Part shown: positions 24,005 to 62,940 of the stretch, one piece after another
Numbering within the stretch: the first letter of the stretch is position 1
Layout: the number at the start of each line of letters is the position of its first letter
Source: a virus
Length of the DNA stretch: 64,000 nucleotides
Virus record (IMG/VR): IMGVR_UViG_3300044539_000240
Strand: one strand, 5' to 3'
Notes under the pieces: model-generated
Database searches by the model: none
Seen by the model: the letters and a program-made list of their open reading frames with translations, nothing else
What the model was told of the DNA's origin: nothing
Made by a program: the position numbers and the translations under genes

Positions 24005-24606
24005 TAAAATTTCATGTATAATTCAACAATTTTTTGGGATAGTCTTTTAATAGTTCGATTGACATCATCTAAATCAATTTCTTTACCTTGTGATTCCATC
24101 CATTTTAAAGTACCTTGAATCATTATGTCTTTAGCCTCTTCAGAGCTGTCCAACATTTCTTGGAAATCTTCATTGTCTTCATTATTTTCACCATAATATC
24201 GGTCAATCCATTTTTTACCTGAGTACAATAACGGTCCTGCTTGAAACATATTCACAGGACCTGCTTTTTGAACTTTCTTAAGATATTCTTTTAGGAATCT
24301 ATAATTAAAGTTTTCAAAAATGTCAGGATTTTTTTTGAAGAAGTCATACTCTTTACTACCGGTTTGTTCCTCGATTCTTTTTTCAGAAATTTTCTTCCAA
24401 GCGTCAGTGGCACTAACTAAAGATAATTTACTACCATTTTCCCAATTAACACTAATAATGACATCATCCTCGTTTGGTTCAAATGGGTCTCTTTGAACTT
24501 TGGTTACAACACCTTTTGTCCCCGGTGGAACGGTTGTTTCGTGTTCCATATGGAAACACATTATATTATCACCAACTTTTAATGGCGGATTTAATTGTCC
24601 TTTCAT
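24001..24606 (-). CDS. hypothetical protein. Start corrected to MKGQLNPPLK.
   Basis: Longest ORF would overlap the divergent 24638 gene; the internal Met at 24606 is preceded by a TATTTATA box. Confidence 0.5.
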   Translation of the reverse strand: MKGQLNPPLKVGDNIMCFHMEHETTVPPGTKGVVTKVQRDPFEPNEDDVIISVNWENGSKLSLVSATDAWKKISEKRIEEQTGSKEYDFFKKNPDIFENFNYRFLKEYLKKVQKAGPVNMFQAGPLLYSGKKWIDRYYGENNEDNEDFQEMLDSSEEAKDIMIQGTLKWMESQGKEIDLDDVNRTIKRLSQKIVELYMKFY

Positions 24607-24637
24607 ACTTATAAATATAATCAATATATTTATTATT

Positions 24638-25258
24638 ATGGAATTTTTAATCACAGAGACACAACTAAAGTCAATTTTAACGGAACAGGACAAATCTAAG
24701 ATGACCGAATACATGAAAGAATTATATTCGTTCACTGAAAATATTGTTAATCGGGTTAAATCAATATATGGTTTAAACCTTAAAATGTTATTAACATGGG
24801 GTACTTCAGTTGGTGGATTAATGATGCCATTAGATAATTTTATTAAATCCGGAAACTTCGATTTAAACGAACAACAAGAATCTTTAATTCTTGTTGCCGT
24901 TGCCGCAACACTATTTTTTGAGAATAAAAGAGGGATGACTAAATTAATGGAAAAAATTAAAGAGGAAGGAATTCTACCTCAATTTGAACAAATTTTATCT
25001 AAAGGGCAAGAATTGAAATCAGCATTTATTGGATTTCTATCATCTGTCAACATTACAGTTGGGTCTTTAATTGAGATTGCCGCCTATAGTTTTTTAGTAC
25101 CAATTATTTTTGATATTTACTCACTTGGCGAATCATCAACAAATTTACGTCAAACAGCATTACAAATTACCGAAAGATTATTAGCGTCAGGTGTTATTGC
25201 GTTAAGTGGTCAAGCACTAACAGTAACAATTAGAAAAATACTTAAAAAATTTAGGTAA
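24638..25258 (+). CDS. N-terminal motif family member (MEFLITETQL...). Start corrected.
   Basis: The internal Met restores the family N-terminus (L-I-T-E-T-Q-L). Predicted hydrophobic segments suggest membrane association. Confidence 0.55.
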   Translation: MEFLITETQLKSILTEQDKSKMTEYMKELYSFTENIVNRVKSIYGLNLKMLLTWGTSVGGLMMPLDNFIKSGNFDLNEQQESLILVAVAATLFFENKRGMTKLMEKIKEEGILPQFEQILSKGQELKSAFIGFLSSVNITVGSLIEIAAYSFLVPIIFDIYSLGESSTNLRQTALQITERLLASGVIALSGQALTVTIRKILKKFR

Positions 25259-25259
25259 T

Positions 25260-26234
25260 TTATTTTTCAGAAAGAATTTTTTGGATAACTCTCTCTTGTT
25301 GTTCAGGATTTAAAGTGTGTTTGTGAGGATATTTTTTAAACCAATTTCTCACCAAAGTTTCCATATTATTTTTTTCCCTTCTTGCTCTTCTTTTGAATCC
25401 GGCTTTTTGCGCCCCCAATTCATATTTGTGGGTATAATATTTATATTTGTCTGATACTTCCTTTCTAGCTCTTCTACCTCCTTGATATTGTAATATATGT
25501 TCAATTTCATGTCTAACAACTTCATTCAATTCATTAACTAAATCATTTAATATTTCATTACCTGAATTAGGGTTCACTAAAATTTCAATATCAATTACAT
25601 CATCTTTATAATATAAATCACCCTCTACTTCAAAAGTTTCAACATCTTCATTTTCTTTAATTGACAAGTTTAAACTATATCCTTTACCTAATTCAGAATA
25701 ATCATAATAAGATTCCGTCTCTCTCAAATCATCAGGTAGCTGGTAATTTCCAACTTTTTTAGTTTTAAACACACTTAAGATATCATTAACAATTTGTCTA
25801 ACAATTCTATCATATTTTCCTTCCATAATTAAACTTTCGTTTATGTTATTATTAGTTTCATTAATTACTTTTGTACAAATCACCGGGTTTTCAATACCCC
25901 AATATAATAAAAACCTTTGTAATTGGTCACTTATTCGATTATTTAAAACATAAAAAGTTAAATCTTGATTATCAAGTTCAAGTTCTTTGTGACCTCTCAT
26001 TAATAAATCTGTAAGAGTATTCATCATCGGGCTAGAAGGTTGTATAAATGTTGTGTAAGTGATAAATGTCATTTTATCACCAGCACGATACATCTCTTTA
26101 ATACCTGTAAGTTCAACTTTAACAACCGCGTACATTTCTCGAGGGGCAACATCACCCAAAGGGTCGTCCACCTTAAACTCATGTTGAGATAAAAAGTTAT
26201 TAAGTCTCTCTATTGGTAAATTTAAATCTTCCAT
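25260..26234 (-). CDS. hypothetical protein with HExxH motif (VRHEIEHILQY) and basic C-terminal tail (324 aa)
   Basis: Possible zinc metallopeptidase, supported only by the short motif. Confidence 0.45.
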   Translation of the reverse strand: MEDLNLPIERLNNFLSQHEFKVDDPLGDVAPREMYAVVKVELTGIKEMYRAGDKMTFITYTTFIQPSSPMMNTLTDLLMRGHKELELDNQDLTFYVLNNRISDQLQRFLLYWGIENPVICTKVINETNNNINESLIMEGKYDRIVRQIVNDILSVFKTKKVGNYQLPDDLRETESYYDYSELGKGYSLNLSIKENEDVETFEVEGDLYYKDDVIDIEILVNPNSGNEILNDLVNELNEVVRHEIEHILQYQGGRRARKEVSDKYKYYTHKYELGAQKAGFKRRARREKNNMETLVRNWFKKYPHKHTLNPEQQERVIQKILSEK

Positions 26235-26246
26235 TATCGATAAATA

Positions 26247-26672
26247 CTATCGAAATGGAATTACAACACCGACTCCGTATCTAAAACCTTCCATGTAATT
26301 TACACCAACAGTGAAATCAAACCCTTTTTCAGTATTTGTAATAATTCTCAATGGGTAAATTTTAACCCATACATCCGGTTTAGTTTTAATTTCATCAATA
26401 TAAGTTTCAATAAATACACCCCCCATAACACTAACTTTGTGATTGGTTAAACTAATCCCAACACGATTCAAAATCGACATCGGTGTTGTGTAGATGTAAG
26501 GTTGTGGACGGGTCGTTGTGACATACCCACCAACATAATACCCAATTGGAGAGTAATTGCTGTTATAAGTTGCTACAATCGTGTTTTGGTCCGGTACATA
26601 CATTAAGTCCGCATCCTGAGAGAATCCCATAAATGGAATCAATAAAAATAAAAGTGAGGTTATTGTTTTCAT
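26247..26672 (-). CDS. small secreted protein, possibly an 8-strand outer-membrane beta-barrel (141 aa)
   Basis: Signal peptide MKTITSLLFLLIPFMGFSQ; alternating hydrophobic pattern; C-terminal ...VVIPFR. Confidence 0.45.
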   Translation of the reverse strand: MKTITSLLFLLIPFMGFSQDADLMYVPDQNTIVATYNSNYSPIGYYVGGYVTTTRPQPYIYTTPMSILNRVGISLTNHKVSVMGGVFIETYIDEIKTKPDVWVKIYPLRIITNTEKGFDFTVGVNYMEGFRYGVGVVIPFR

Positions 26673-26784
26673 AATGCAAATATACTACATTTAATCATAC
26701 TATAAAAATTAAAATGTTAAAATTTACATTTGTATTTGACCCATTTAATTAAAAAAATTATAATTTAATCAAACTAAATAACTT

Positions 26785-27972
26785 ATGTCAAAAATCTCAG
26801 AAATTAAAAACCAGTATCCTGAGTTAAACATATCGATAATCGATTTGTTTTCAAAAATGGATAGTACCAAAACAAACAAATACTTACCTTTAATGTGTAA
26901 ATTACTTTCATCAAGATTCCAAGTGAATAAATTATGGCACAAACGTGACGAAGAAAGTGAAATGAATCATATTAAAGAAAGATTGGACCTTATGGGTTTA
27001 AATTATAATGGTATGTCAAATAATGAAATTTACGCTCATTATTGTTTATCAGACCATTTTAGTAATGAAGATATGCAGCTTTTAGCCTCATTTCGAAAAT
27101 ATAATGAAAGAGGTTTAATACCAAATAATGATGTCACTTCTTACCAAAATTTTGAACAAATCATGTCGTCTGTTGGATTAGCCTCTCTAAAAGAAGATGA
27201 GAAAGAATTAAGGTCTCAAATCATTAGAGAACACGATGACGAAACTTGGTTAGCGTTAAGACCATTAACATTTGGAGCATCATCCAAATACGGAGCGGCA
27301 ACTAAATGGTGTACAACTTACCAAAATGATAAACAGTATTTTGAAAGATATTGGAAAAGAGGTATTTTAGTTTATTTTATTAATAAAATCACCGGATTAA
27401 AATTTGCCGTATTCAAAGCTCTTGATGGAGATAAAGAATTAAGTTTTTGGAATGCTGCGGACCAAAGAGTCGATTTCTTGGAATTAGATATAGATGATTA
27501 TATGTTCCCAATTATTAAACAAATTTTGAAATCGGAAGAAACCAATAGAGATTTGTCTTCAACTAAAATTAGAGCACAAGTTCGTAAAGAATGTGGTCGT
27601 CCAGTTGAGAAACAATTAGTTAGGCAAGACACGTACTACGAAGAAGAGGTAGAAAGACCAATGTATGAGGTGGAAACACCAATGATGGAAGAGGCAATTC
27701 CACAAATTAATTTTAACATGGAAGAAAGACGTGTTGAACCTCGAGTTGTTCAATTAAGACCTTTAGGTAGAGAAATTAGAGAAGAAATGAACAATATCAT
27801 GGAAGAAATTGGTGAAGATATTACTGAAGAAACTATATCACCTCTTAGAAGAAGAATTTCGAATCTTAGAGAATCAATGGGAATTAGATTACAAAACATT
27901 GAAATCGGAGGAGCTCATCAAGTTGGTGAAGAAATCGGTTATGAAGAAGATTGTACACAAAGTCCAGAATAA
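26785..27972 (+). CDS. hypothetical protein with C-terminal E/R-rich repeats (395 aa)
   Basis: Candidate -7 box TACATTTG at 26725-26732 upstream. Confidence 0.5.
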   Translation: MSKISEIKNQYPELNISIIDLFSKMDSTKTNKYLPLMCKLLSSRFQVNKLWHKRDEESEMNHIKERLDLMGLNYNGMSNNEIYAHYCLSDHFSNEDMQLLASFRKYNERGLIPNNDVTSYQNFEQIMSSVGLASLKEDEKELRSQIIREHDDETWLALRPLTFGASSKYGAATKWCTTYQNDKQYFERYWKRGILVYFINKITGLKFAVFKALDGDKELSFWNAADQRVDFLELDIDDYMFPIIKQILKSEETNRDLSSTKIRAQVRKECGRPVEKQLVRQDTYYEEEVERPMYEVETPMMEEAIPQINFNMEERRVEPRVVQLRPLGREIREEMNNIMEEIGEDITEETISPLRRRISNLRESMGIRLQNIEIGGAHQVGEEIGYEEDCTQSPE

Positions 27973-27978
27973 AAAAAA

Positions 27979-28005
27979 ATACCCCAATTACGGGGTATTT
28001 TTTTA
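27979..28005. terminator. bidirectional intrinsic terminator
   Basis: A9 then ataccccaatt/acggggtat hairpin then T7, between convergent genes. Confidence 0.7.
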
Positions 28006-28006
28006 T

Positions 28007-28279
28007 TTAAAATTCTTCTATTTCAACAACTAATTTACCATCACCTTTAATTACTCGGTGCCAAGAAAGTTTTGGAATAATAAGTTTATCGGCAATTGAC
28101 AACTTATTCGGCAATTCATCTTCCATTTGAAATTGCCACCCACCATCTTCAATTATGGTTACTCGTCTATCTTTCAAGTCCTGATGCCACTTTAATTCTT
28201 CATCTTCAACATCCGGATAAAAAGTTCTTACTAGTTTACCATTTTCAATTATTTGTTCAAATGGGAAATCCATTACCAA
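28007..28279 (-). CDS. hypothetical protein (90 aa)
   Basis: Its start overlaps the stop of 28273..28899. Confidence 0.45.
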   Translation of the reverse strand: MVMDFPFEQIIENGKLVRTFYPDVEDEELKWHQDLKDRRVTIIEDGGWQFQMEDELPNKLSIADKLIIPKLSWHRVIKGDGKLVVEIEEF

Positions 28280-28899
28280 GAGTTTGAAGAAGAAAGCCCT
28301 AATTGTTTTGCGTATCGTCCAACATTACAAGACCAATATCCTGCAGTTGTTCTATCTTTCTTTTGGTCACATTTATGACGTGCTCTGAATGATTTGGCAG
28401 CCCCTTTATTTTTATTTTTGATTTTTAAGTTAGGGTCTCCGAAAGTCACCTTTTTAACCCCACCTCCTGGTGTTTTAACATAAACGGCGAATTTCTTAGG
28501 ACCTCCGGGAGTTCTTTTAGGTTTATTTAATTGAACCTTTTTTCCTCTGTGCATTGCCTCTTGTAAAATATCTTCTTCAGTTTCAGTTTCATAGATGTAA
28601 GGAGCGTCCAAATAAACATACTCATTACCTATTTTAACTTTAATACCCAAATCAGACTCAACCATCATTTTATCTTCTTCATTTAGGTCTATTTTACCTT
28701 CATTCCATAGTTTTCTAACTTCGTTAACCAAATCAAAATATTTTTGAGAGTACGCTCTAAAAACATTATCAGTTAACGACATACCTTCATTAATATGGTA
28801 AGATAGTGATTCTGATACTTCAACGTCTTCTTTTAATATTAAAGTCTTATCTAAGTGGGACTCTAATGTCTCTTTAATTATTTGTCTTAAATTATTCAT
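28273..28899 (-). CDS. N-terminal motif family member (MNNLRQIIKETLESHL), basic Cys-containing C-terminus
   Basis: I-I-K-E-T-L matches the family [ILV]-x-E motif. TATATTCTATTT upstream. Confidence 0.5.
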   Translation of the reverse strand: MNNLRQIIKETLESHLDKTLILKEDVEVSESLSYHINEGMSLTDNVFRAYSQKYFDLVNEVRKLWNEGKIDLNEEDKMMVESDLGIKVKIGNEYVYLDAPYIYETETEEDILQEAMHRGKKVQLNKPKRTPGGPKKFAVYVKTPGGGVKKVTFGDPNLKIKNKNKGAAKSFRARHKCDQKKDRTTAGYWSCNVGRYAKQLGLSSSNSW

Positions 28900-28927
28900 A
28901 TATTCTATTTTATAATAAATACTTCAA

Positions 28928-29386
28928 TTATTGTTGTTTTAAACCACGATAATAGTTAATCATATTTTCACAATGTTTAATCAACCAATTTTCAACTAAA
29001 GGTATTTTTTTAAGGAAATCCAATTCATATTGATAACATAAAATTTCTTCATCCCTCTCATCTAAAAATATGTTATTATTCCTATAATATAAATGTTTTG
29101 ATTCATGAATTATTATGGCAGATAAATTATTGATATTACCTGATTGAATGTCTTGTTTAGATATCAATATAACATCATTACCTTCAGTGGTTGAGAACTT
29201 ATTATTCCAAAACCCTATTCGTTTACATTGTTTAATCACTATGTCGTACTTGGGTGAATCCACTTTTTTAATCACTTCCAAACTTTTCTCCACATTTTTT
29301 TTCCACCCTTCTCCAACATCATCAATGACTATTTGTGAAAACGATTGAGTGGTAAAAAACAACATTAATAATATGATAATTCTCAT
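28928..29386 (-). CDS. small secreted protein with HExxH motif (IIHESKHLYY); possible zinc metallopeptidase (152 aa)
   Basis: Signal peptide MRIIILLMLFFTTQSFSQ and HESKH motif. Confidence 0.4.
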   Translation of the reverse strand: MRIIILLMLFFTTQSFSQIVIDDVGEGWKKNVEKSLEVIKKVDSPKYDIVIKQCKRIGFWNNKFSTTEGNDVILISKQDIQSGNINNLSAIIIHESKHLYYRNNNIFLDERDEEILCYQYELDFLKKIPLVENWLIKHCENMINYYRGLKQQ

Positions 29387-29475
29387 GTTTTTTTTCTAAA
29401 TAAATAGTGGGTTTAGGGTGTCAAACTTTTATACGAATATTTATAGGTAATAAATTACCAAGATATTATTAAACT

Positions 29476-31359
29476 ATGAAAAAACTTTTTATGGTGCTGT
29501 CATTCCTTGTGATGACTTCACTGGGTTATTCCCAAATTTGTCCGACACCGACAACTACCGGAGTTTTTGTTACATTAGACGCAACTTATCAATTAGCACC
29601 GGCATCTGCTGGTAATACTGAAGTAGGTTTATGTTTTTTTAACAATACTACCGAATTGATTACGGCTGTTCAGTTTCGAGTGTTTTATGATACCTCAGCA
29701 TTCACATCAGTGTCTTCTGTCGTATCGTCAAATACATCGTTCCCCCAATATATTCAATTTCAGGATAGTCCTGCAAATGGATATGTTACGATTACTCTAA
29801 CTTATACAGGTAATGACTCGAATTTTGAATTATCAAATGGGTCATTTGTAAAATTAAATTTAGTACACTCAGCGAATTTTGCGAGTTTGTCGTCTGTTCA
29901 ACCCATGACATTTAGTGGTGTTCAAACATTCCCACAAACCGCAACAAAACAAAATGGTTCTGACTATACTTTAAATTTACAAAACTTTGGTGGAGCATTT
30001 TTACCTCAACTATTTTCGTTTAGTGGTACATTCACTAACGTAACAGGAACGGGGTCAAAACTAATTCCGGTTATTTTAGAGAAAAAATTAATGACATCTT
30101 CAACTTGGATTCAAGCGTCAACAACACAAACAAATAACGCTGGTGTTTTCACATTTACAGATGTACCACTAGACGTTACAAGTTATGACGTTCGTATTAG
30201 AGTAGATGGTGAATCACTATCAATAGCAAATATCATTTCAACATCTGACTCACAAAAAATCAACAGATTTGTTTTAGGTCAAGATACTCCGACAGGATTT
30301 GATTTTTATTCATCTGATGTTAATGGTGACAACAACATATCAATTTCTGATGTGTATGGTGTGTTTGGTAGAGTATCAGGAAGATTTAGTTCTTGGCCTA
30401 ACTCGGTTAAAGATGTTAAATTCTTCTCAGATTCAGAATACACTTCTATTAATGGTTCAACATCATCTTTACAATCTACAATTCCGGGTGTAACGAATCT
30501 TGTTTACAACATTTTACCGGGTACAACAACAGTTACTTTCTATGTGTTAGTTAAAGGAGATGCTAATGGTACAGGTTTTAATATGGCTCGTATGACACCA
30601 ATTGAAATTGTAAACCCGTTAAACGCACCATCAAATATTATTGATGTTACAACAACTTATGACAACCCAACATTACAAACCATCGAATTAAACTATCCAA
30701 GTTTAACGGTAAATGAAAATAGTAGAGTTGAGGTTCCTGTTCTTGTAAAAACAAATGGAATTCAATTAGGTTCTTTACAACTGGCATTAAATTACAATAG
30801 TAATCTATTAGATTTTACAGGTGTTAGAGCTGAGAATAAAGTTAGTGGATGGATAACTTATGTTAATACAAATGATAATATTGTTGAGTGGGGTGGCTAT
30901 GACCCAACAAAAAATACAAAATTATTAAATGACAACGAATTAGCTTTCACACTACAATTCACATCGAAAGAAATTCAAAGTCAATGGGGTGTAAGTCCTT
31001 TATATGTTACAAAAAAATTCTCAGGAAATTCAATCGCTCGAGATTTGAAAATAATACCTACAAATGGGATTATTCAAATCATGAGAGTTATGAAACCAAC
31101 CGATTTAGAATATATGGTGACATACCCTAATCCAACTGATAATGACATCACTGTCAAATTTACTGTAGAAAAAGAAGGTAATGTTTGGTTATCTTTATAT
31201 GATTTGGGTGGTAGAGAAATTCAAACAATCGTTAACACTGATTTACATTCAGGTGAACACAGATATAGTACAAATGTTGGTTACCTTCCTTCAGGAACTT
31301 ACATAGTTACTCTTAAAAAAGGTACGGAAATAGAATCTAATAAGATAATCCGTAAATAA
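29476..31359 (+). CDS. secreted protein with Por/T9SS C-terminal sorting domain (627 aa)
   Basis: Signal peptide; C-terminal approximately 80 aa YPNPTDNDITVKFTVEKEGNVWLSLYDLGGREIQTIVN...GTYIVTLKKGTEIESNKIIRK fits the type-A CTD pattern (TIGR04183-like); internal dockerin-like DVNGDNNISISD; TATTTATAGG box 37 nt upstream. Confidence 0.6.
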   Translation: MKKLFMVLSFLVMTSLGYSQICPTPTTTGVFVTLDATYQLAPASAGNTEVGLCFFNNTTELITAVQFRVFYDTSAFTSVSSVVSSNTSFPQYIQFQDSPANGYVTITLTYTGNDSNFELSNGSFVKLNLVHSANFASLSSVQPMTFSGVQTFPQTATKQNGSDYTLNLQNFGGAFLPQLFSFSGTFTNVTGTGSKLIPVILEKKLMTSSTWIQASTTQTNNAGVFTFTDVPLDVTSYDVRIRVDGESLSIANIISTSDSQKINRFVLGQDTPTGFDFYSSDVNGDNNISISDVYGVFGRVSGRFSSWPNSVKDVKFFSDSEYTSINGSTSSLQSTIPGVTNLVYNILPGTTTVTFYVLVKGDANGTGFNMARMTPIEIVNPLNAPSNIIDVTTTYDNPTLQTIELNYPSLTVNENSRVEVPVLVKTNGIQLGSLQLALNYNSNLLDFTGVRAENKVSGWITYVNTNDNIVEWGGYDPTKNTKLLNDNELAFTLQFTSKEIQSQWGVSPLYVTKKFSGNSIARDLKIIPTNGIIQIMRVMKPTDLEYMVTYPNPTDNDITVKFTVEKEGNVWLSLYDLGGREIQTIVNTDLHSGEHRYSTNVGYLPSGTYIVTLKKGTEIESNKIIRK

Positions 31360-31427
31360 TTTATGGTGTCACAATTTGTGACACCAAAGCCTATAAGAAG
31401 GAAATAAACAATTAAAATTAAATTAAA

Positions 31428-31769
31428 ATGTCAGAAGAAACACAAGAAACACAAAATGATGGTACTTGGTCAGGATTAAAGAAAACAATAATAGGTACTT
31501 TAACTACTGTTATTGGTGGTGGTGGTATATGGTTATCAACACAATTGTTTGGAGGTCATGGTGACGATAAAGAAGAAACAAAAACAGAACAAGTTGCACA
31601 ACCTGCAGCCGCACCTGTAGTTATCAATCTACAAAACAACAACACAAACCAACAAAAACAACAAAACAATGGTGGTGGTACTAACACAATTATCAGAGAA
31701 AAAGTTGTGGAAAAACCAGCAGCACAACCAGCACCTGCTAAACCAAAAACGGAAGAAGACCCTTGGTAA
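31428..31769 (+). CDS. membrane-anchored Pro/Ala/Gln-rich protein (113 aa)
   Basis: One TM helix IIGTLTTVIGGGGIWLSTQLFGG then low-complexity PAAAP/Q-N-rich region. Confidence 0.5.
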   Translation: MSEETQETQNDGTWSGLKKTIIGTLTTVIGGGGIWLSTQLFGGHGDDKEETKTEQVAQPAAAPVVINLQNNNTNQQKQQNNGGGTNTIIREKVVEKPAAQPAPAKPKTEEDPW

Positions 31770-31770
31770 T

Positions 31771-32487
31771 ATGAAAAAAATAGTATTACTATTACCTTTT
31801 TTACTTTTTTCGTGTATTGGATTATCCCAAACTATTGGAACCATAAAAACTGAGGACTATAAAGCAGATTTTGAAAAAAAACAATCTTTAGATGTTGTCA
31901 GTGATTATAATGGTGACATTGTAATACCAATCCAAATATTAAAAATTGGTATCAACGATGAGGTATATGAGATGTATCCTGAACTAAAAGATAAACGAGT
32001 AGGTCTTGGGGTTGCGAATATTGTATTAGAGTATTTAGAATCAACAGATAGATTTAAATTCACTGAGGATAAAGCGGAAATCAAAAACAAAATGATTGCC
32101 CAAGATAAGGCGTCTGATAAAGGAATTTCAAGTAATAAAATAGAAGTTAAAGGTAATGTAATTTTAGCTAACTATTTTGTTTACATAGAAGTTTACGATT
32201 TCAGTGTCTCAGAAGACGAAGTGATTAAAGGAAGTGAAGGTGCTAAAATAACTCAAACAACTCGTTTAGGTTTACAGATTAGATTTGTCGATGCCCAAAC
32301 CGGTGAAGTTATAACTGGTAGTGGGTTAGGTGAGTCTAACACAGTGAAAACATCATCGTTATTAGATGATGTTGATGAAATTAAATTTAACCAATCAACA
32401 ATTGGTATATCAACAAAAAAATCGTTAGAAACCGCATCTTCAAGAGTTGTTTCTAAATTAATTAAAAAAGGGGTTTTTAAAGAATAA
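31771..32487 (+). CDS. lipoprotein. Start corrected to MKKIVLLLPFLLFSC.
   Basis: Lipobox L-F-S-C. ATG lies 2 nt after the stop of the preceding gene. The longer ORF upstream overlaps that gene. Confidence 0.55.
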   Translation: MKKIVLLLPFLLFSCIGLSQTIGTIKTEDYKADFEKKQSLDVVSDYNGDIVIPIQILKIGINDEVYEMYPELKDKRVGLGVANIVLEYLESTDRFKFTEDKAEIKNKMIAQDKASDKGISSNKIEVKGNVILANYFVYIEVYDFSVSEDEVIKGSEGAKITQTTRLGLQIRFVDAQTGEVITGSGLGESNTVKTSSLLDDVDEIKFNQSTIGISTKKSLETASSRVVSKLIKKGVFKE

Positions 32488-33944
32488 TGAAGACGATATT
32501 CTCATTTTTATTTCTTATATTTACAACCATGGTATTAGGTCAAGGGTTTACATATTCGTATGCAGACCCTTGCACTTCCAAAACCAAGGAAATTTTTATT
32601 CCAAATCCATCACAAAGTGTGGTGTTATCATATAATGGGTCAGTACAAAGTTTTACATATGCTCAACTTCAATCAGGTGCAATGGAACAATGGATAAATG
32701 AGGTAAATTCTCAAAATCCTTCAGGTCCTTGTAGTGGTGTAGGTCTTCAACTGAACACATCGGTTAACGCAACAATTGCTGCCAATAACATACAAGTATT
32801 AACTACTGTATTAACCTCAATGTCTTCAATATCATCCGCAGGTATGTCAAATGTGGAAGGTATTATTCAAGCAGATGAAAAAGTATCATCTAATAATGAA
32901 AGACAGAAGGATAAAACCAAAATAGAAAATAATGCAACAATTAATATTAACGGAGGAAGTACAACAACTACTAACACAAATTCAGGAACTTCGCAAAGCG
33001 GGGGAAATCAAAACAATGGTTCAGGAGTTGGAAATGGAACTAATCCGCAAGGAGGAACGACTTCAAATCCAAATAACCCAACTACAACAGGAGGTCAGTC
33101 GTCTCAGTCACCTGTAACTTCCGGTAATAACACATCACCAAATACTAATAACTCCACAACACAAAATACTAATAACTCCTCGGGTGTAAGTAATATCACA
33201 GGAGGGATTAATTCTGTCAAATTAGACAATACTGAAAAATCAGATAAAGAAAAACTTGATGACGCACAATCCTCATCATCAACAACCTCTTCATCAACTA
33301 AAAGTAAAGTCGCTGCAGTTAAAAAAGGTAGTTTAATGATGACAGGAGATATTGTAGTAATAGGAAGCGCCGCAGGAACTGACCCTTCTCAAATAAGAGT
33401 AAATACGAGTATCATTTCATCAAACACAAAAAACACATTTGCAAAAGGAGCGTTGGTTAATTATACAAGTCAAGTTAACAACACGAATATCACATTATTT
33501 GCATCATATCGTTATAAAAAATTAACAACTATTATTGCAAATTCATCTATGATGAATTTTGATAAAGATTTTTTTAACACAACCTCTGTAATGGAGTCGT
33601 ACCAAATAAAAAAAATCACCACAACCGTGGGGGTTAACTACACAACAGGGAATTTAGGGGAATCTAAATTTCAAAGTATCTCTACATTAGGTGGAGCATT
33701 TGGTAGTTTTAATGTTAATAAAAAAATGGGTATGACAACAATGTTTGTTATTGTATATTCCCCTTTTGTATATTATTACGAGGGAATATGGTATCAATCA
33801 GGTCTATTAGCAGTTCCATTTGTTGCTGTCGATTATAAATTAACTAAAAAATTTAAACTAAACCTAAGTTTTAGTGGGGTACAACAAATAAACGACCAAC
33901 CACTAAACTACCAAGTATTACTTGGAGCTAAAGCATTTTTATAA
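32487..33944 (+). CDS. secreted protein with long S/T/N/G-rich low-complexity linker and C-terminal beta-rich domain (485 aa)
   Basis: Signal peptide MKTIFSFLFLIFTTMVLGQ. The C-terminal approximately 180 aa has alternating hydrophobic residues and ends ...LGAKAFL (outer-membrane-barrel-like). Confidence 0.5.
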   Translation: MKTIFSFLFLIFTTMVLGQGFTYSYADPCTSKTKEIFIPNPSQSVVLSYNGSVQSFTYAQLQSGAMEQWINEVNSQNPSGPCSGVGLQLNTSVNATIAANNIQVLTTVLTSMSSISSAGMSNVEGIIQADEKVSSNNERQKDKTKIENNATININGGSTTTTNTNSGTSQSGGNQNNGSGVGNGTNPQGGTTSNPNNPTTTGGQSSQSPVTSGNNTSPNTNNSTTQNTNNSSGVSNITGGINSVKLDNTEKSDKEKLDDAQSSSSTTSSSTKSKVAAVKKGSLMMTGDIVVIGSAAGTDPSQIRVNTSIISSNTKNTFAKGALVNYTSQVNNTNITLFASYRYKKLTTIIANSSMMNFDKDFFNTTSVMESYQIKKITTTVGVNYTTGNLGESKFQSISTLGGAFGSFNVNKKMGMTTMFVIVYSPFVYYYEGIWYQSGLLAVPFVAVDYKLTKKFKLNLSFSGVQQINDQPLNYQVLLGAKAFL

Positions 33945-33946
33945 CT

Positions 33947-34732: not shown

Positions 34733-34734
34733 AT

Positions 34735-36156: not shown

Positions 36157-36193
36157 AGTTAAAGTATTTATAGTAATAAAAACGTAAATTACT

Positions 36194-39454: not shown

Positions 39455-39478
39455 CCACCTTTTGTTGTATTTATTAGT

Positions 39479-41326: not shown

Positions 41327-41346
41327 ATTTATAAATACCTCAATAA

Positions 41347-41374
41347 ATAAAAAACCCCTCGATTAGGAGGGGTT
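41347..41374 (-). terminator. intrinsic terminator downstream of 41382..41657
   Basis: cccctc-gattag-gagggg hairpin; on the minus strand it is followed by a U-run (plus A8). Confidence 0.65.
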
Positions 41375-41381: not shown

Positions 41382-41657
41382 TTACTCTTCAGTTTCTTCA
41401 CCTTTACCTTTGTTAATCCATTTGTCTACCGAACCGATACCAAATGAACCTAAAACTAACCACATAAAGGCGTTGAAGATAAACTCGTTTATTACTAGGT
41501 CTTGACCTAAATAACCTGTGACAATATCCGCAATTGCGAATACAGTCATCATGATGAAGGCTAAAAAGCCAACAACACTTTTCTCATTAATTGAGTTACT
41601 ATCATTGAATAACTCGCTAAAAAATTTTTTCATAGTATTTGGTAATTTACTTAACAA
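41382..41657 (-). CDS. small membrane protein, 2 TM (91 aa)
   Basis: Two hydrophobic helices (VVGFLAFIMMTVFAIADIV; FIFNAFMWLVLGSFGIGSV). Confidence 0.5.
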   Translation of the reverse strand: MLSKLPNTMKKFFSELFNDSNSINEKSVVGFLAFIMMTVFAIADIVTGYLGQDLVINEFIFNAFMWLVLGSFGIGSVDKWINKGKGEETEE

Positions 41658-41884
41658 TAAATATCAAAAAAACACTATTTATCTAAAAAACTTATAACAT
41701 GGCAAAAGTTAATACAGGTTCAAACTCATCAGTTAAATTAGAGACTTCAAAAGTTAGTCGTCCGGGTGTTCATTCAAAAACTAAGACATCTAAGTTAAAA
41801 CAATCTAAAAACTACAAGAAGTCATACAAAGGACAAGGTAAATAGTTTGTTTTCAAATCAAAAAAATTAACTATATTTCTTATT

Positions 41885-42480: not shown

Positions 42481-42635
42481 ATTCTAAACTATTTCTAAAT
42501 AAATATACCATTGTTAATAAAAAAATGGTACTTTGGTCGAGAAGCGAATAATTATTATTCTTAAAAGAATAATAATATAACAATAAAATATAATAAAAAA
42601 CTAAAAAAAAAAATAAGCACTAGTACTAGAACTAG

Positions 42636-43813: not shown

Positions 43814-43833
43814 GTCTATAAATATATCAATAA

Positions 43834-44559: not shown

Positions 44560-44576
44560 ATTAAGTATTTATTGGT

Positions 44577-47267: not shown

Positions 47268-47300
47268 ATCTATAAATAGTTTTATTATATAAATATAACA

Positions 47301-49131: not shown

Positions 49132-49203
49132 ATTTTATAAATACCTAAATAACCATATTTGACTTATTAATCATTATTTAATATTATTCTAAAAAAAAAA
49201 ACT

Positions 49204-50189: not shown

Positions 50190-50216
50190 ATGTTATAAAT
50201 ACGATGATAAATAAAA

Positions 50217-51880: not shown

Positions 51881-51925
51881 TACCTATAAATAGATTTATA
51901 ATTAAAAAACCCTTGTAGTTAAGAA

Positions 51926-52631: not shown

Positions 52632-53003
52632 TTAACGTTTTGTCGGAATTCTTCGAATTGAAACCGGGACATCGAACATATTGACAATCTCGTCCCAAGT
52701 ATTATCAACCAATCCATCATATTCATCTCTATTAAGAGGTCTTTCAGTATTAACCCAAATTGTGATGGCATATTCATCTCTATCAGTTAACCTATAAACC
52801 TTTGCATCATGTATCAATTCATTTTGTGGTGTTAATACATTATCCAAATATTTTTGGATTAGTTTCAATTTTCTTTCTTCAGGAGAATATTTGGATTCGG
52901 TTTCAATAATATTTGGGGTTTTGTTAATCTTATGATGTAACTCCCAATTAATAATTGATTCCCGTAATACTTTCTTTATGATTTTGTTAAGTTCCATATA
53001 CAA
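52632..53003 (-). CDS. hypothetical protein (123 aa)
   Basis: ORF followed by a terminator. Confidence 0.5.
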   Translation of the reverse strand: MYMELNKIIKKVLRESIINWELHHKINKTPNIIETESKYSPEERKLKLIQKYLDNVLTPQNELIHDAKVYRLTDRDEYAITIWVNTERPLNRDEYDGLVDNTWDEIVNMFDVPVSIRRIPTKR

Positions 53004-53009
53004 TAAATA

Positions 53010-54391: not shown

Positions 54392-54399
54392 AATAATTT

Positions 54400-54696: not shown

Positions 54697-54990
54697 AATA
54701 TTATATTTTAATAATAAATATCAAACATAAATCATTTCTTATTCTAAAATTTTCTTTCCTAAAATAAGTGGAGATGAGGTTTTATGATTAGCAACCGTGA
54801 AATGAGAATCATACTCTTTAATAATCATTGTCGAATCCGGAGTGAATGTTTGTTTGTAACGTGCCAATACATACTCTCTAACTTTGTTCTGAATTTCTTG
54901 TGTCATTTTATTTTTCTTTTAGGTTATAAATTATTCCACAAAGATATAAAAAGTTTTCATATAAAAAAACCTCAATCAATATTTATTAAT

Positions 54991-55383
54991 ATGGGAACAC
55001 ACAGAGTAAATTTTATAAAAAGTAATAAATTTTGGTTTGCGGATTTTACTGAAACCGAACTTACACCTAACATAAATGGAGTTAATCAAAGAAAACTATT
55101 ACCATTAACTCGTAATGGTTGGGATGAGTGGGTAGAAATAGTTTCCGAAAGTGATGATAATTTTTGGATGATTGTCTCCAATTCTGAACTTGTAGGGGGG
55201 ACCGAACTTAAATACCTTAATTTAACTACGGGAAACCCAAATCCAAACCAATGTGGGAATTGTTACGAATTCAAATCTTACAAAGGGGTTGAATATAATA
55301 TTAAATTTTTTATTTGTTCAAATGGGTTGGATTTTGTATTTGATGAAACTCCTTCTTCATGGTTTTTTAAAAGAGAATATTAA
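54991..55383 (+). CDS. hypothetical protein. Start corrected to MGTHRVNFIK (about 130 aa).
   Basis: The upstream part of the track ORF is low-complexity and overlaps a minus-strand mini-gene. Confidence 0.45.
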   Translation: MGTHRVNFIKSNKFWFADFTETELTPNINGVNQRKLLPLTRNGWDEWVEIVSESDDNFWMIVSNSELVGGTELKYLNLTTGNPNPNQCGNCYEFKSYKGVEYNIKFFICSNGLDFVFDETPSSWFFKREY

Positions 55384-55688
55384 GACTGAGTAAATTTTAC
55401 ATCGACACCATACTTCCATTCAAACCATTCAGAGATAAATTTATATGCCTCTTCATCGTTAGGGAAAAATAAATCCGAGAATCCACGACCAAACGAACTA
55501 TTAACATATAGTCTTCCATCAGTATGGTCATATTCCATCATAACCTCATCTTCAATATCATCTACTTCACCAGGATGATAGATAATAATAAACTCTTCGA
55601 AGTCAGATTCATACCCAATCCTATTTTCAATATATTCTTTTCTTAGGTCGTTTAATTTACTTTCTTTTATAATGTATTTCATATTCAA
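55380..55688 (-). CDS. N-terminal motif family member (MNMKYIIKESKLNDL), 102 aa
   Basis: I-I-K-E-S-K-L; GTATTTATTGAAT upstream. Confidence 0.55.
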   Translation of the reverse strand: MNMKYIIKESKLNDLRKEYIENRIGYESDFEEFIIIYHPGEVDDIEDEVMMEYDHTDGRLYVNSSFGRGFSDLFFPNDEEAYKFISEWFEWKYGVDVKFTQS

Positions 55689-55709
55689 TAAATACCACGG
55701 CTATTTTAA

Positions 55710-57528: not shown

Positions 57529-57904
57529 AAAGACAACCAATATCGGTTGTAATATTATTTGTATTTCTATTTTTTTTCTTTTTATACATCGATAATAAGT
57601 ATATGTAAGTTGTCTAAAAATACAATACTTTTTTTATTTTTTATTTTCTTCTTTTACTAATGGTTTTGAGTCACCAAGTTTAGAATTAATTAATTTTGAG
57701 AAATTCTCAGTCATAACTTTCATTCCTCCTGTGTGTTGTTCACGGATGGCATTTTTTTCTTCTTCAGATAAATTATTCAATATGTGTTTCATATGTTCGT
57801 TTTATTATAAATAGTTTGTTATGATGGAAAATAATTGTCAAACACCCTATTATAGTGGAAAATAAAGGACAATTAACCTTATTTTTTACTTTTTAATGGA
57901 AAAT

Positions 57905-58213: not shown

Positions 58214-58214
58214 A

Positions 58215-58535: not shown

Positions 58536-58536
58536 C

Positions 58537-58908: not shown

Positions 58909-58927
58909 AATTATAAATACTCAACAA

Positions 58928-58953
58928 TAAAAAAACCCACCTCAATGGGTGGG
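58928..58953 (-). terminator. intrinsic terminator (cccacc-tcaat-gggtggg; U-run on the minus strand)
   Basis: Downstream of 58962..59450. Confidence 0.6.
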
Positions 58954-58961
58954 ATAATTTA

Positions 58962-59450: not shown

Positions 59451-59495
59451 AATATATTTTTTTCAAAAATTATGCCAAAAAATAGTTACCTATCT

Positions 59496-60182: not shown

Positions 60183-60215
60183 ATTATCATTTTTAAGTTA
60201 ATGATAAATATAAAG

Positions 60216-60566: not shown

Positions 60567-60582
60567 ATTAATAACGTTTTAT

Positions 60583-61224: not shown

Positions 61225-61228
61225 GTAT

Positions 61229-61819
61229 TTAACGAGGTTTGTAAATTGGTTTGATTTTTTCCAAGTCTGATATTAGATTATTTAAAGATGCTGTTTCAGT
61301 ATAAAATTTATTATACAAATCACCCATTTGTTTTTTGTAGTTTGGGTTTTTATTTAATACACCACCTTGTTTCGGTACAGGAATAGCAGATTTAATATTC
61401 TCCAATTCTTTTTTCAATATATGGGCATTAGAATAAATATTTTTTAAATCTACAACACCACCTTTAGCCGCGGATATATCTTTAGCCAATAATCTTGCAT
61501 AGGTGTTAGCAATTCCACTTCCACCTTGGCTTTTTAAATAGTGTTCCAAACTTTTTATATTAGAAGAATGGGTGTTAAATACATTTTTTAACTTATCACC
61601 AACTTTAACTTTTTTTGGGAATGATTGAATTAACATTTGGACCTTACTTGGTAATTGACCCATTAATGGTACACCCACCTTGGCGGCAGGTTTTGAACCA
61701 AATTTAAAAATCTTTTGTAAGATGTTTCTTAATATTTGTTCATTCATCTCAGGCTTATCAGTAACCCTTTTAATAACATTGGCCAATTCTGATTCGGTTA
61801 ACCTTATAATTTTCCCCAT
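61229..61819 (-). CDS. N-terminal motif family member (MGKIIRLTESELANVIKRV), 196 aa
   Basis: R-L-T-E-S-E-L; GTATTTATAATT 15 nt upstream. Confidence 0.55.
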   Translation of the reverse strand: MGKIIRLTESELANVIKRVTDKPEMNEQILRNILQKIFKFGSKPAAKVGVPLMGQLPSKVQMLIQSFPKKVKVGDKLKNVFNTHSSNIKSLEHYLKSQGGSGIANTYARLLAKDISAAKGGVVDLKNIYSNAHILKKELENIKSAIPVPKQGGVLNKNPNYKKQMGDLYNKFYTETASLNNLISDLEKIKPIYKPR

Positions 61820-61848
61820 AATTTAGTCATTTAATTATAAATACTTCA

Positions 61849-62940
61849 CTAACCAATATTTTCTTTCACACCAAATTTAATTGTTTCCTCAAGATAATTA
61901 TAAAACGCTTTTGTTCTATCTTCTTTACCGTGATAATAATTACCATAACCTATTAGTTCTCCACTTTGGTCAGGTAATGGTTGGGTTTCTTTAATACCGG
62001 TTTCAATAATAGTATCAACATTACCATCAGTAATGTTTTGTCTCAAAATAGTTTTCTTAATGCCATTTTGTATAGTGTCTTCAACCATTACCTGTGGCAT
62101 ATACTCGGTGTTGAGAGTTTCCTTAACTCCATTCTCAATAACATCATCAATCATTTTTGGGTAACTAGTTGAGTTATTTTCTTTCATCCATTCATCGGTT
62201 GACGCAATATCACCATTACCGGGTGTCTTTGTTTCTTTAATACCATTTTCAATAAGATATTCAACTACTTTAGTATAATCTTTATGAATGCGTCCGGTAA
62301 GTTTTATACCCTCTTCAAGTGTATCTTCAATAAAAAAAGAACGGTCGTTTTCTATACCTCGTATGTTTTTCACCCCATTTTCGATTATTTCTTCAACTTG
62401 CCAATCAGTATATTGTGTCATTGGGGAAATATCTCTCACCCCATTTTCAATTATATTTTTAACTGTGAGTTGTTTATGTCCTCGATTAAACATAGTTTCC
62501 TTCACCCCATTCTCAATAACATTTTCACAATCTACCTTCATTCTAACAAAAGAGAATGAGTTTTCTTTCACCGCCATTTCAATGATTCCTTCAACTTCAC
62601 CTTCCGTAATGTTTTGTTCCAAAATGGTGTCTTTAACCTTATTGATTATATTATCTTCCACCCATTGGGTAATGTAATGTTGATTCTCCACAACATCCAT
62701 TGAGGCATAAGCAAACATCCCTTTGAAAAAGTTATAGTTATACCACAGAGTTTTGCTCTCGGTTAATTCAATCACCCATTGTTTGGACTCCGTGAATATT
62801 AACCAAGTGGAGCCATTATGGGTATAAGTGTCCACACCTTTAACAGATTCATCAATTAATTTATTAACTATTTTTTTCATCAACTTTCTTTTTAAATAAT
62901 TCGAAAAACTTATCTTGGTTTGTTTTCTCAGGTGGGACAA
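61849..62940 (-). CDS. repeat protein with about 8 degenerate approximately 27-aa repeats (hxxxIENG[VI]KET). Start possibly at 62880.
   Basis: Repeats visible in both protein and DNA (ccattttcaata... recurring on the plus strand). Confidence 0.55.
   Translation of the reverse strand: MSHLRKQTKISFSNYLKRKLMKKIVNKLIDESVKGVDTYTHNGSTWLIFTESKQWVIELTESKTLWYNYNFFKGMFAYASMDVVENQHYITQWVEDNIINKVKDTILEQNITEGEVEGIIEMAVKENSFSFVRMKVDCENVIENGVKETMFNRGHKQLTVKNIIENGVRDISPMTQYTDWQVEEIIENGVKNIRGIENDRSFFIEDTLEEGIKLTGRIHKDYTKVVEYLIENGIKETKTPGNGDIASTDEWMKENNSTSYPKMIDDVIENGVKETLNTEYMPQVMVEDTIQNGIKKTILRQNITDGNVDTIIETGIKETQPLPDQSGELIGYGNYYHGKEDRTKAFYNYLEETIKFGVKENIG

Follow-up and report, generated by a model that had tools for sequence, protein, structure and literature searches.

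The window analysed here, a 64,000-nucleotide stretch of viral DNA (IMG/VR record IMGVR_UViG_3300044539_000240), carries about 30 genes led by a TATTTAT box, all of them co-oriented with their box. The core of the box reads R-TATTTAT-W, the final base being A or T, occasionally C, and never usefully G. Twenty-four box-led genes lie inside 24590-61850, where an earlier note on this DNA had claimed at least 14, and five lie beyond (1885, 13170, 13456, 14459 and 18445). All 12 sites listed in that note were recovered, with gaps of 3-30 nt from box end to ATG. The box of a gene placed at 55688 was present, but the true ATG of this gene is at 55682, 4 nt after TATTTATT. The box said to be common to a divergent pair, at 44566-44573, fits the gene at 44577 (+) but is in reverse complement for the gene at 44559 (-). 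The box described upstream of a mini-gene at about 54906 (-) had to be abandoned: a host-type TATCTTTG and a one-mismatch aATTTATA are found there instead.

Table. TATTTAT boxes, associated terminators and variable segments of the window.
Feature	Position	Strand	Spacing and gene
aTATTTATT	1889..1896	-	3 nt to ATG 1885 (236 aa); predicted leaderless class
aTATTTATT	3205..3212	+	3 nt to 5-codon ORF (3216)
TATTTATA	13189..13196	-	18 nt to ATG 13170
TATTTATT	13482..13489	-	25 nt to ATG 13456
TATTTATT	14421..14428	+	30 nt to ATG 14459
gTATTTATA	18459..18466	-	13 nt to ATG 18445 (344 aa)
TATTTATA	24610..24617	-	3 nt to ATG 24606 (201 aa); back to back with 24627..24634
TATTTATT	24627..24634	+	3 nt to ATG 24638 (206 aa, MEFLITETQ...)
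gTATTTATC	26239..26246	-	4 nt to ATG 26234 (324 aa)
gTATTTATT	28914..28921	-	14 nt to ATG 28899
TATTTATT	29399..29406	-	12 nt to ATG 29386
aTATTTATA	29438..29445	+	30 nt to ATG 29476
gTATTTATA	36165..36172	+	21 nt to endolysin gene (36194)
gTATTTATT	39468..39475	+	3 nt to ATG 39479 (211 aa)
gTATTTATA	41330..41337	-	3 nt to ATG 41326 (326 aa, MKIKITESQ...)
Intrinsic terminator (hairpin + T-run)	41353..41374	-	15 nt upstream of box 41337
TATTTATT	41656..41663	-	22 nt to ATG 41633
TATTTATC	41676..41683	+	15 nt to ATG 41699 (48-aa basic protein)
TATTTATT	42498..42505	-	17 nt to ATG 42480
TATTTATA	43817..43824	-	3 nt to ATG 43813 (166 aa)
gTATTTATT	44566..44573	+	3 nt to ATG 44577 (secreted DNA/RNA endonuclease)
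Tandem boxes (47288-47295, 47271-47278)	47271..47295	-	proximal box 3 nt to ATG 47267
Terminator	47321-47300		directly precedes the tandem boxes
gTATTTATA	49136..49143	-	4 nt to ATG 49131 (343 aa, MKYIITESQ...)
gTATTTATA	50194..50201	-	4 nt to ATG 50189
Terminator	50238-50215		precedes box 50201
TATTTATA	51885..51892	-	4 nt to ATG 51880 (286 aa)
gTATTTATT	53002..53009	-	4 nt to ATG 52997 (121 aa)
TATTTATT	54713..54720	-	16 nt to ATG 54696
TATTTATT	54980..54987	+	3 nt to ATG 54991 (130 aa)
gTATTTATT / TATTTATT	55687..55694	-	4 nt to ATG 55682 (100 aa, MKYIIKESK...)
TATTTATA	57806..57813	-	13 nt to ATG 57792 (52 aa)
gTATTTATA	58912..58919	-	3 nt to ATG 58908 (123 aa)
Terminator	58953-58936		precedes box 58919
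TATTTATC	60203..60210	-	20 nt to ATG 60182
gTATTTATA	61836..61843	-	16 nt to ATG 61819 (196 aa)
Box+ORF unit	41344-40356		box 41337 is its 5' edge; missing in L007, L008, L016 and L017
Box+ORF unit	50210-49868		gene 50189; missing in L006
Box+ORF unit	54969-55364		gene 54991; missing in L005 and L006
Indel	43838-44551		between two boxes, includes neither

The box-led genes of the window are mostly small accessory genes. The 31-nt spacer between the divergent ATGs 24606 and 24638 holds one box per gene, and the distal box of the tandem pair lies 20 nt upstream of ATG 47267. The box preceding gene 29476 heads a run (29476-36156) encoding secreted lectin/cohesin/T9SS-tail proteins. Gene 41633 is a homologue of gp78 of Flavobacterium phage immuto, which adjoins chitinase and holin genes, and the immuto homologue of gene 41699 is likewise box-led.

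The genome has a base composition of 31% G+C, and the 19 copies of TATTTATA in the window are not above chance (14.9 +/- 3.8 expected from shuffles). A survey of the 45 nt upstream of the window ORFs, on the coding strand, returned TATTTAT as the top-enriched 7-mer, these 3% of positions containing 30 of its 60 copies (p = 2e-29). TATTTATH separated from an ATG by three nucleotides was seen 12 times against 0.83 expected, and by four nucleotides 6 times against 1.01, counts reached in none of 100 shuffles; combined, TATTTAT[A/T/C] at 3-4 nt from an ATG gave 18 against 1.8. When the first ATG of each ORF of 60 aa or more was taken as reference, 68% of the window's TATTTATA copies lay no more than 40 nt upstream, as compared with 11% for the reverse-complement orientation. 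Over the window, immuto and IMG/VR loci, an ORF start followed within 40 nt for 55-68% of boxes but for 11-15% of reverse complements. These results confirm that the TATTTAT(A/T) box is a genuine, non-random feature.

Conservation was followed in some 2 Mb of DNA from related phages, comprising immuto, the sole complete relative, and 160 IMG/VR loci. The window derives from a member of the immuto-related myovirus clade that uses this putative promoter box. Sheath orthologues, with protein identity down to about 51-60%, retained TATTTATA in 43 of 49 distinct upstream regions, and upstream of endolysin orthologues, where the flanks are unalignable, nearly all of the 39 distinct sequences still had the box. 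At 80 tail-sheath loci, every ORF-proximal box was co-oriented with its gene (201/201); boxes without a downstream ORF split 139/129 by orientation. The boxes of immuto, concentrated at 110-160 kb, lead the genes for large terminase, portal, sheath, tube, hub, tape-measure and tail-spike, and its early-type promoters (GTTGC-N17-19-TATATTTAGGTA) form a separate class at 60-76 kb. Cellulophaga phage phi14:2 (crAss-like, 30% GC) contains 74 boxes; two of these precede ORFs, and none does so at 5 nt or less. This negative result despite matching base composition indicates that use of the box is clade-specific. To judge from the sequences compared, the promoter class is most likely common to a large group of Flavobacterium-type phages.

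The distance from box to ATG was bimodal among 924 pooled sites. A sharp peak covered 3 nt (84 sites) and 4 nt (52 sites), and a broad one 11-18 nt, or 11-30 nt when drawn more widely; these frequencies over-count common ancestry since the pool includes many orthologues. A purine was found 3 nt beyond the box in both distance classes. At sites with a leader, the fourth base 3' of the box was A in 84-86% and G in 13%; at sites with leaderless spacing, T directly preceded the ATG in 92% of those with a 3-nt spacer and in 67% of those with a 4-nt spacer, in line with the pyrimidine(-1)/purine(+1) pattern common at start sites. The box has no -35/-33 partner; all that the upstream DNA shows is A/T-rich tracts, weak ones, at about one and two helical turns. 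The strict pattern of a shared N-terminal peptide tag was present in 36 of 133 distinct N-termini of leaderless-class genes, and a looser reading gave a higher share (about a quarter to half), so that the tight spacing could partly reflect the spread of one box+tag module.

The Bacteroidota -7 box occupies -12..-5, 4-5 nt before the transcription start (PMC6847099, PMC9723704), and TAHHTTTG boxes of the same loci also peaked at 4 nt (53 sites) and at 15-16 nt (36 sites) from the ATG. Both observations remove the objection, raised in the earlier note, that the TATTTAT box is too close to the ATG for a -10 element. As that note had also stated, the host-type TAnnTTTG boxes are distinct and lead a different gene set. 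We regard this set as probably early. Of the promoters predicted in the window, roughly half have leaderless spacing (box-type, 15 of 28; host-type, 4 of 11).

We consider it likely, on the sequence evidence, that R-TATTTAT-W is the -10/-7-like core of a -35-less and probably late phage promoter class giving rise to many leaderless mRNAs. A phage-specific promoter with leaderless or very short-leader transcripts had been among the earlier proposals, and is supported by the orientation of the box, its position at operon heads and after terminators, its conservation in divergent relatives, the fixed purine 3 nt downstream and the host -7-box geometry. We infer that transcription most likely starts at the purine 3-4 nt past the box, which would place the box at about -11..-4. 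Where the ATG occupies this position, the mRNA would be leaderless, as predicted for 18 window sites with an ATG start and mostly T at -1; the remaining sites would yield a short A-rich leader of about 7-27 nt. The class would drive structural and lysis genes, hence its probable late timing, and in the window also many small accessory genes, whose late expression is suggested by likeness to the endolysin gene and to immuto structural genes. The accessory genes behave as self-contained box+ORF units, inserted after terminators. In F. psychrophilum, 5.5% of the mRNAs mapped are leaderless (PMC9723704); the phage would use on a large scale an arrangement that is rare in its host phylum.

The promoter class proposed here resembles several known systems. 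T4 late promoters, TATAAATA, are recognised by gp55 together with gp33 and the gp45 clamp. Their one element is an 8-bp box of A and T at the -10 position, with A/T-rich DNA immediately downstream and no -35 element (PMC2988020). The present box agrees in this layout and likewise leads structural and lysis genes, in a myovirus whose gp20/gp23 head genes are T4-like. However, its coding strand carries the reverse complement, TATTTATA, the T4 orientation not being enriched, and the start would lie 3-4 nt past the box as compared with about 5 in T4, where the box begins at -13. Immuto also differs in its replication genes (PolA, DnaB, DnaG), with no annotated sliding clamp. The reverse-complement relation to the T4 element, pointed out previously, is a purely formal likeness, orientation being opposite. 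The Bacteroidota housekeeping promoter (-33 TTTG / -7 TAnnTTTG), served by sigma-A of the Bacteroides fragilis type, also has an 8-bp box that begins with TA and stands 3-5 nt before the start. Instead of a strong upstream box it has A/T-rich tracts at one and two turns (PMC6847099) and, in these phages, the same two-peak distance to start codons. By contrast, where the host box has its near-invariant T(-7) and G(-5), the phage box has A and A/T, and no -33 TTG accompanies the latter, whereas immuto early promoters have a clear GTTGC. TATTTATG was not enriched upstream of genes. A -10-type box fixed a few nucleotides before the AUG is known for leaderless genes of lambda (cI), actinobacteria, Deinococcus and archaea; the phage box similarly stands at a fixed, very short distance from the ATG that leaves no room for a ribosome-binding leader.

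The reader of the box would presumably be the host core RNA polymerase together with a putative specificity factor that the phage encodes or modifies. The complete immuto genome gave no gp55 homologue (best E = 0.12), there were no sigma-70, ECF or RinA-type Pfam matches among 101 window ORFs and 73 immuto hypothetical proteins, and no phage RNA polymerase was seen among 10 large unannotated immuto proteins scanned. In Thermus phage P23-45, the small non-sigma proteins gp39 and gp76 re-target the host polymerase to -35-less middle/late promoters (PMC3950348), a precedent for a sigma factor not being found. Those promoters have an extended -10 element and no -35; motif, host phylum and proteins all differ, and the likeness would be one of analogy, a phage switching host polymerase to -35-less middle/late promoters. 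The lack of a detectable sigma-like factor would also fit a box that binds a late phage regulator (activator, anti-terminator or repressor) while polymerase reads another element nearby, and the conserved GGTTT about 15 nt upstream of sheath boxes could be a second site. We find this unlikely, as nothing else is conserved between terminator and ATG in the 3-4 nt class, and as the box stands relative to the inferred start where a -7/-10 element would, paralleling the host-type boxes. A single asymmetric A/T 8-mer in strict orientation is, moreover, more like a -10 element read in single-stranded form than a dimeric site.

Bacteroidota mRNAs have A-rich unstructured leaders instead of Shine-Dalgarno sequences (PMC6847099). 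An A/T-only box always upstream of and near the start codon could accordingly be a translation-initiation enhancer within the 5' UTR, replacing Shine-Dalgarno, with the true promoters further upstream, as the earlier note had considered. Several observations make this very unlikely. Boxes stand anywhere from 3 to 30 nt before the ATG (3-4, 11-18, about 30), whereas the downstream purine is at a fixed distance, and a 3-nt spacer is too small for a ribosome-binding leader. Operon-head genes carry the box in 25 of 65 cases against 3 of 34 for tightly coupled internal genes (Fisher p = 0.002), which need translation initiation too. Terminators are more numerous than expected (25 against 8.2). They include some that end 10-25 nt before boxes 41337, 47295/47278, 50201 and 58919, so that any promoter further upstream would be cut off. 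Finally, phi14:2, from another Flavobacteriia host (Cellulophaga) and of equal base composition, lacks the association.

Single box+ORF units were present or absent among contigs 85-97% identical, the breakpoints falling 9-11 nt ahead of the box and, at the other end, on the stop codon, and many units are flanked by terminator hairpins. Small variable genes with their own promoter and stem-loop terminator are known as T4-type promoter-stem-loop cassettes and lambdoid 'morons'. The units resemble these in being promoter/terminator-bracketed and gained or lost as wholes among close relatives, but their promoter is the phage-specific box, not an early promoter of host type, and the unit is joined to a predicted leaderless start. 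The earlier suggestion of a conserved cassette boundary thus holds as a description; as an explanation, it is surpassed by the promoter reading, in which units are gained and lost as such because each brings its own promoter. That the box is chiefly a recombination boundary, its promoter activity being secondary, appears highly improbable: it also leads unshuffled syntenic core genes (sheath, portal, terminase), recombination alone does not require strict orientation and spacing to start codon or purine, and the indel at 43838-44551 contains neither of the boxes between which it lies. The boundary reading is in any case compatible with the promoter reading and not an alternative to it. A chance product of A/T-rich intergenic composition, which the unremarkable TATTTATA count and the low G+C might have suggested, has a negligible probability and is refuted by the enrichment statistics (composite and 7-mer), along with the orientation asymmetry, the conservation in relatives and the composition-matched phi14:2.

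A hairpin followed by a T-run was observed at about 3336-3360, downstream of box 3205..3212 and its 5-codon ORF; this unit possibly corresponds to a small RNA.

TATTTAT is the most enriched 7-mer on the coding strand in the 45 nt upstream of the window's ORFs, with 30 of its 60 copies lying in 3% of positions (p = 2e-29). The raw number of TATTTATA copies (19, against 14.9 +/- 3.8 in shuffles) is not unusual and, taken alone, would suggest a chance origin, but this is ruled out by the tests of position and orientation. In the window, 68% of the TATTTATA copies precede the first ATG of an ORF by at most 40 nt, compared with 11% for the reverse complement. With R-TATTTAT-W as working consensus, 29 protein genes of the window are preceded by the box, 24 inside the range considered by the earlier note, which had counted at least 14, and 5 outside it. 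Every box site listed in that note is present. Two of its assignments had to be changed, however: the box at 44566, thought to serve both genes of a divergent pair, is oriented for the gene at 44577 (+) only, and the mini-gene near 54906 (-) is preceded by a host-type TATCTTTG box instead. The sequence TATTTAT[A/C/T]-N3-ATG was observed 12 times in the window for 0.83 expected and TATTTAT[A/C/T]-N4-ATG 6 times for 1.01 expected, that is 18 sites with a 3-4 nt spacing versus 1.8 expected.

Applying the box rule corrects gene starts in the window, for instance at 24606, 24638, 52997, 54991 and 55682. The longest-ORF calls overlap in the region 24001-25258 (minus strand, 24001-24735; plus strand, 24500-25258); with the boxes taken into account, it contains two divergent genes that do not overlap and start at 24606 (-) and 24638 (+), each with its own box within the 31-nt spacer. 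The stretch 3205-3360 (+) comprises a box, followed after 3 nt by a 5-codon ORF (MIMTN) and no longer one, about 120 nt and then a hairpin with a T-run. This unit, for which no Rfam match was obtained, may correspond to a small non-coding RNA or to a leader peptide unit.

The distance between the box and the first ATG of an ORF was tallied at 924 non-redundant sites: values of 3 nt (84 sites) and 4 nt (52 sites) stand out sharply, a second, broad maximum spans 11-18 nt, and a small one lies around 30 nt. A gap of 3-4 nt was found for 136 of the 424 ORF-proximal boxes in the pooled data. Such a variable distance to the ATG argues against the box being a translation-initiation enhancer, an option raised by the earlier note, and so do several further observations. 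The box precedes 25 of 65 operon-head genes versus 3 of 34 tightly coupled genes (p = 0.002). Intrinsic terminators are enriched between 40 and 60 kb of the window (25 versus 8.2 expected), and the boxes at 41337, 47295/47278, 50201 and 58919 each lie 10-25 nt after one of them, so that transcription must restart there. Each gene of the divergent pair 24606/24638 has its own box. Finally, in the control Cellulophaga phage phi14:2 (crAss-like, Flavobacteriia host, 30% G+C), just 2 of 74 box copies precede ORFs, neither of them at 5 nt or less. Operon-head placement, terminators and conservation in related phages make it likely that the box is a promoter element.

In Flavobacterium phage immuto, a cultured relative with a complete genome and all genes on one strand, TATTTATA occurs 30 times on the gene strand versus 15 times on the other. 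The immuto copies cluster in the half of the genome that encodes structural proteins; they precede the genes for the large terminase, portal, tail sheath, tube, baseplate hub, tape measure and tail spike by 10-30 nt. Nearly all endolysin orthologues from 80 IMG/VR loci of related phage DNA carry TATTTAT[A/T] 13-40 nt from the ATG, in upstream regions that are otherwise unalignable. Among 80 tail-sheath orthologues, down to about 51-60% protein identity, TATTTATA is kept in 43 of the 49 distinct upstream regions. In the sheath loci, every one of the 201 boxes followed by an ORF start points in the direction of the genes; boxes without a downstream ORF are split 139/129. In most relatives (L092-L171) the sheath-gene box is preceded, at about 15 nt, by a conserved element GGTTT(a/c), which could be the site of a regulator specific for the sheath promoter; the frequency tables did not reveal GGTTT at box promoters in general.

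Conservation in the frequency tables is limited to the box, R at -1 and a run of purines downstream. No -35 or -33 element is conserved upstream of the box, A/T-rich tracts about 5-8 and 13-16 nt away being the only upstream feature. At sites with longer gaps (leadered class), A occupies the fourth, fifth and sixth bases after the box in 84%, 77% and 75% of cases; in the structural-gene set the frequencies at the fourth base are 86% A and 13% G. The same fourth position is taken by the A of the ATG in the short-spacer class, and T precedes this A in 92% of the sites with a 3-nt spacer and 67% of those with a 4-nt spacer. Transcription usually starts at a purine (+1) preceded by a pyrimidine (-1). 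The T before the ATG matches this preference, lending indirect support to a 5' end at the AUG, and the ATG is further supported as the true start because N-terminal residues are conserved from Met1 on in many short-spacer genes. According to the simplest reading, the box would be a -7/-10-type element with a start 3-4 nt downstream, so that mRNAs from the 3-4 nt class would be leaderless. A putative promoter element at a fixed short distance from the AUG, as expected for leaderless genes, was found both in the window and in the pooled spacing data. Of the earlier proposal, a promoter producing leaderless or very short-leader mRNAs, the promoter part is likely to hold; the leaderless status and the late timing, both predicted from the sequence, are somewhat less certain.

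Host-type TAHHTTTG boxes of the same phage loci also have two peaks, one of 53 sites at 4 nt and one of 36 sites at 15-16 nt; the parallel at 4 nt is further indirect support for a 5' end at the AUG. As TAnnTTTG boxes stand exactly 4-5 nt before the window ATGs at 18654 (+), 20761 (+), 26672 (-) and 40327 (-), the presumed early promoters of these phages seem to use leaderless starts too. About half of the predicted promoters of the window have leaderless spacing (15/28 box-type, 4/11 host-type), compared with a leaderless share of 5.5% among mapped mRNAs in the host genus (PMC9723704). Such heavy use would be unusual in a phylum that initiates translation without Shine-Dalgarno sequences and has few leaderless mRNAs.

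The distinction drawn earlier between the box and the host-type element was confirmed. The Bacteroidota sigma-A -7 consensus is TAnnTTTG, with near-invariant T-8, T-7, T-6 and G-5 (PMC6847099); TATTTAT[A/T] does not conform to it, and a G-ending variant of the box is not enriched upstream of genes in the window or in immuto. There is also no column at the boxes that would correspond to the sigma-A -33 element (TTTG/TTG), whereas immuto early promoters have GTTGC. The latter form a second promoter class, GTTGC-N17-19-TAT(A/C)TTTAGGTA, located before about 25 small genes at 60-76 kb. This array is highly regular, with about 25 near-identical copies of aGTTGC-N17-19-TAT(A/C)TTTAGGTAtcaataattaaaac (positions 10900-26200 of the immuto stretch L002, i.e. 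immuto 60.9-76.2 kb), each before a small gene and with the final G of the box replaced by A. The GTTGC class is a Bacteroidota -33/-7 promoter and presumably an early one. In mapped Flavobacterium promoters the host -7 box covers -12 to -5, the start being 4-5 nt away, and A/T-rich tracts at -18 and -28 stand out more than any -33 motif (PMC6847099, PMC9723704). The predicted start, at the ATG or conserved purine, is 3-4 nt past the box, which is compatible with this geometry, with a shift of about 1 nt.

The earlier note had also connected the box with the T4 late promoter. Both consist of a single A/T-only 8-bp box, in what would here be the -10 region, without a conserved -35, and, as at T4-type late promoters, virion and lysis genes, presumably late, are box-led (in immuto and among the endolysin and sheath orthologues). 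However, the orientation is opposite (PMC2988020): the T4 late promoter reads TATAAATA along transcription and the boxes described here read TATTTATA, 11-15% of the copies being upstream of ORFs in the TATAAATA orientation versus 55-68% for TATTTATA. Moreover, a five-protein gp55 profile detected no homologue (best E = 0.12) in six-frame ORFs of immuto, the window and 82 loci, a search covering the complete immuto genome and part of the window lineage. A gp55-type late promoter was rejected on these two grounds, and the link is retained as a functional likeness. The box thus resembles the T4 late promoter functionally and the Bacteroidota -7 box geometrically, and it fails the defining sequence features of both.

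Among the best 25 of 27 Pfam families and the best 25 of 49 PHROGs families matched by 101 window ORFs, sets from which weak matches could escape, there was no sigma factor or RNA polymerase. Pfam gave no sigma-family domain or RNA polymerase for 73 immuto hypothetical proteins, and PHROGs no sigma factor or RNA polymerase for 10 large immuto unknowns. T4-type late promoters are coupled to a gp45-type sliding clamp and the co-activator gp33. The annotation listing of immuto includes the replication proteins PolA, DnaB and DnaG and is devoid of a clamp or clamp loader. The negative searches and the lack of an annotated sliding clamp leave the T4 mechanism unsupported. Small non-sigma proteins of Thermus phage P23-45 that re-target the host polymerase offer a precedent (PMC3950348). 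Tentatively, a late specificity factor of an undescribed kind, neither gp55- nor sigma-70-related, might read the box in this clade and run a largely leaderless programme that includes a large, rapidly exchanging arsenal of small proteins with the N-terminal tag M-K-x-I-I-T-E-S. Since these searches detected no sigma-like factor, the clade is a good place to seek a new way of re-targeting Bacteroidota RNA polymerase.

Overall, the box is probably a clade-specific phage promoter devoid of a -35 element, and probably a late one. We found no prior description of it in the searchable literature on the motif, on immuto promoters or on late promoters of Flavobacterium or Cellulophaga phages. The rule for the clade is simple and testable (R-TATTTAT-W, then a purine 3-4 nt later) and sorts probable early from probable late genes using sequence alone. 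Box promoters may also serve as compact, portable promoters for Flavobacteriia genetics.

The suggestion that the box marks a cassette boundary was partly borne out. Three single box+ORF units (41344-40356, 50210-49868 and 54969-55364) are absent from contigs 85-97% identical to the window, the junctions being read directly, and two of them were inserted directly after a terminator. Autonomous units of promoter and ORF, with or without terminator, are therefore present or absent among close relatives in the manner of mobile cassettes, and the box is their 5' edge. Stable core genes use the same box, and its location at the edge of mobile units is expected if the promoter is compact and self-sufficient.

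In the window, many small proteins that are otherwise unrelated begin with the tag M-K-(Y/I/L)-I-I-T-E-S-(Q/K)-(L/Y). Its Ser is encoded by TCA or AGT, a variation which points to selection on the peptide and not on the DNA. No Pfam domain was found in 10 tagged box-led proteins. The tag is also present in IMG/VR relatives, and in two immuto proteins as ...LAGIITES.... Its (I/L)-x-E motif is similar to the T4 prohead-protease cleavage site and to the capsid-targeting sequence of T4 internal proteins. By analogy, M-K-x-I-I-T-E-S may be a capsid-targeting and protease-cleavage signal, and the tagged genes may encode packaged or injected proteins. A second N-terminal motif, R-(I/V)-K-(E/L)-(I/L/M)-M-G-(Y/L/V), occurs in other box-led proteins.

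Window proteins carrying either N-terminal motif (start of the tagged proteins, extent of the others)
N-terminal motif	Position	Strand	Relatives
Tag	24638	+	
Tag	41326	-	
Tag	43813	-	
Tag	46386	-	
Tag	47267	-	
Tag	49131	-	
Tag	51880	-	
Tag	55682	-	
Tag	58213	-	
Tag	58535	-	
Tag	58908	-	
Tag	61819	-	
Second motif	10228-11397	-	in L005-L086 (related phage loci)
Second motif	12655-13170	-	in L005-L086 (related phage loci)

The only cultured relatives of the window, whose phage DNA has 30-34% G+C, are 160-kb Flavobacterium myoviruses of the genus Immutovirus, to which nucleotide identity is about 70% across a few kb, with 18 ORFs at 30-74% protein identity. Megablast of window 40-64 kb revealed no near-identity to cultured phages, the similarity to immuto being distant only. 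IMG/VR contains hundreds of relatives closer than immuto, on contigs of up to 318 kb; the clade gave more than 500 endolysin and more than 600 sheath matches there and has one cultured member, immuto. Kinship with Immutovirus, a T9SS C-terminal sorting domain and the many host-type TAnnTTTG boxes indicate a Bacteroidota host.

Rfam and tRNA scans gave nothing at the boxes, their sole matches being five clustered tRNA genes (Tyr, Val, Cys, Gln, Ser) at 193-819 (-), across which the listed ORFs are spurious. At 3750-7007 (+), two carbamoyltransferase genes of the NodU/CmcH type stand in tandem; they are paralogues with 28% identity, and a gene for a ClpP-type protease (7656-8402) is their neighbour. 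A complete set of genes for 7-deazaguanine DNA modification is present in immuto (QueC/D/E/F, FolE and DpdA; L001, another immuto stretch, 18600-37000). The late box is free of G or C and host-type boxes end in G, a difference that might bear on promoter use when the DNA is modified.
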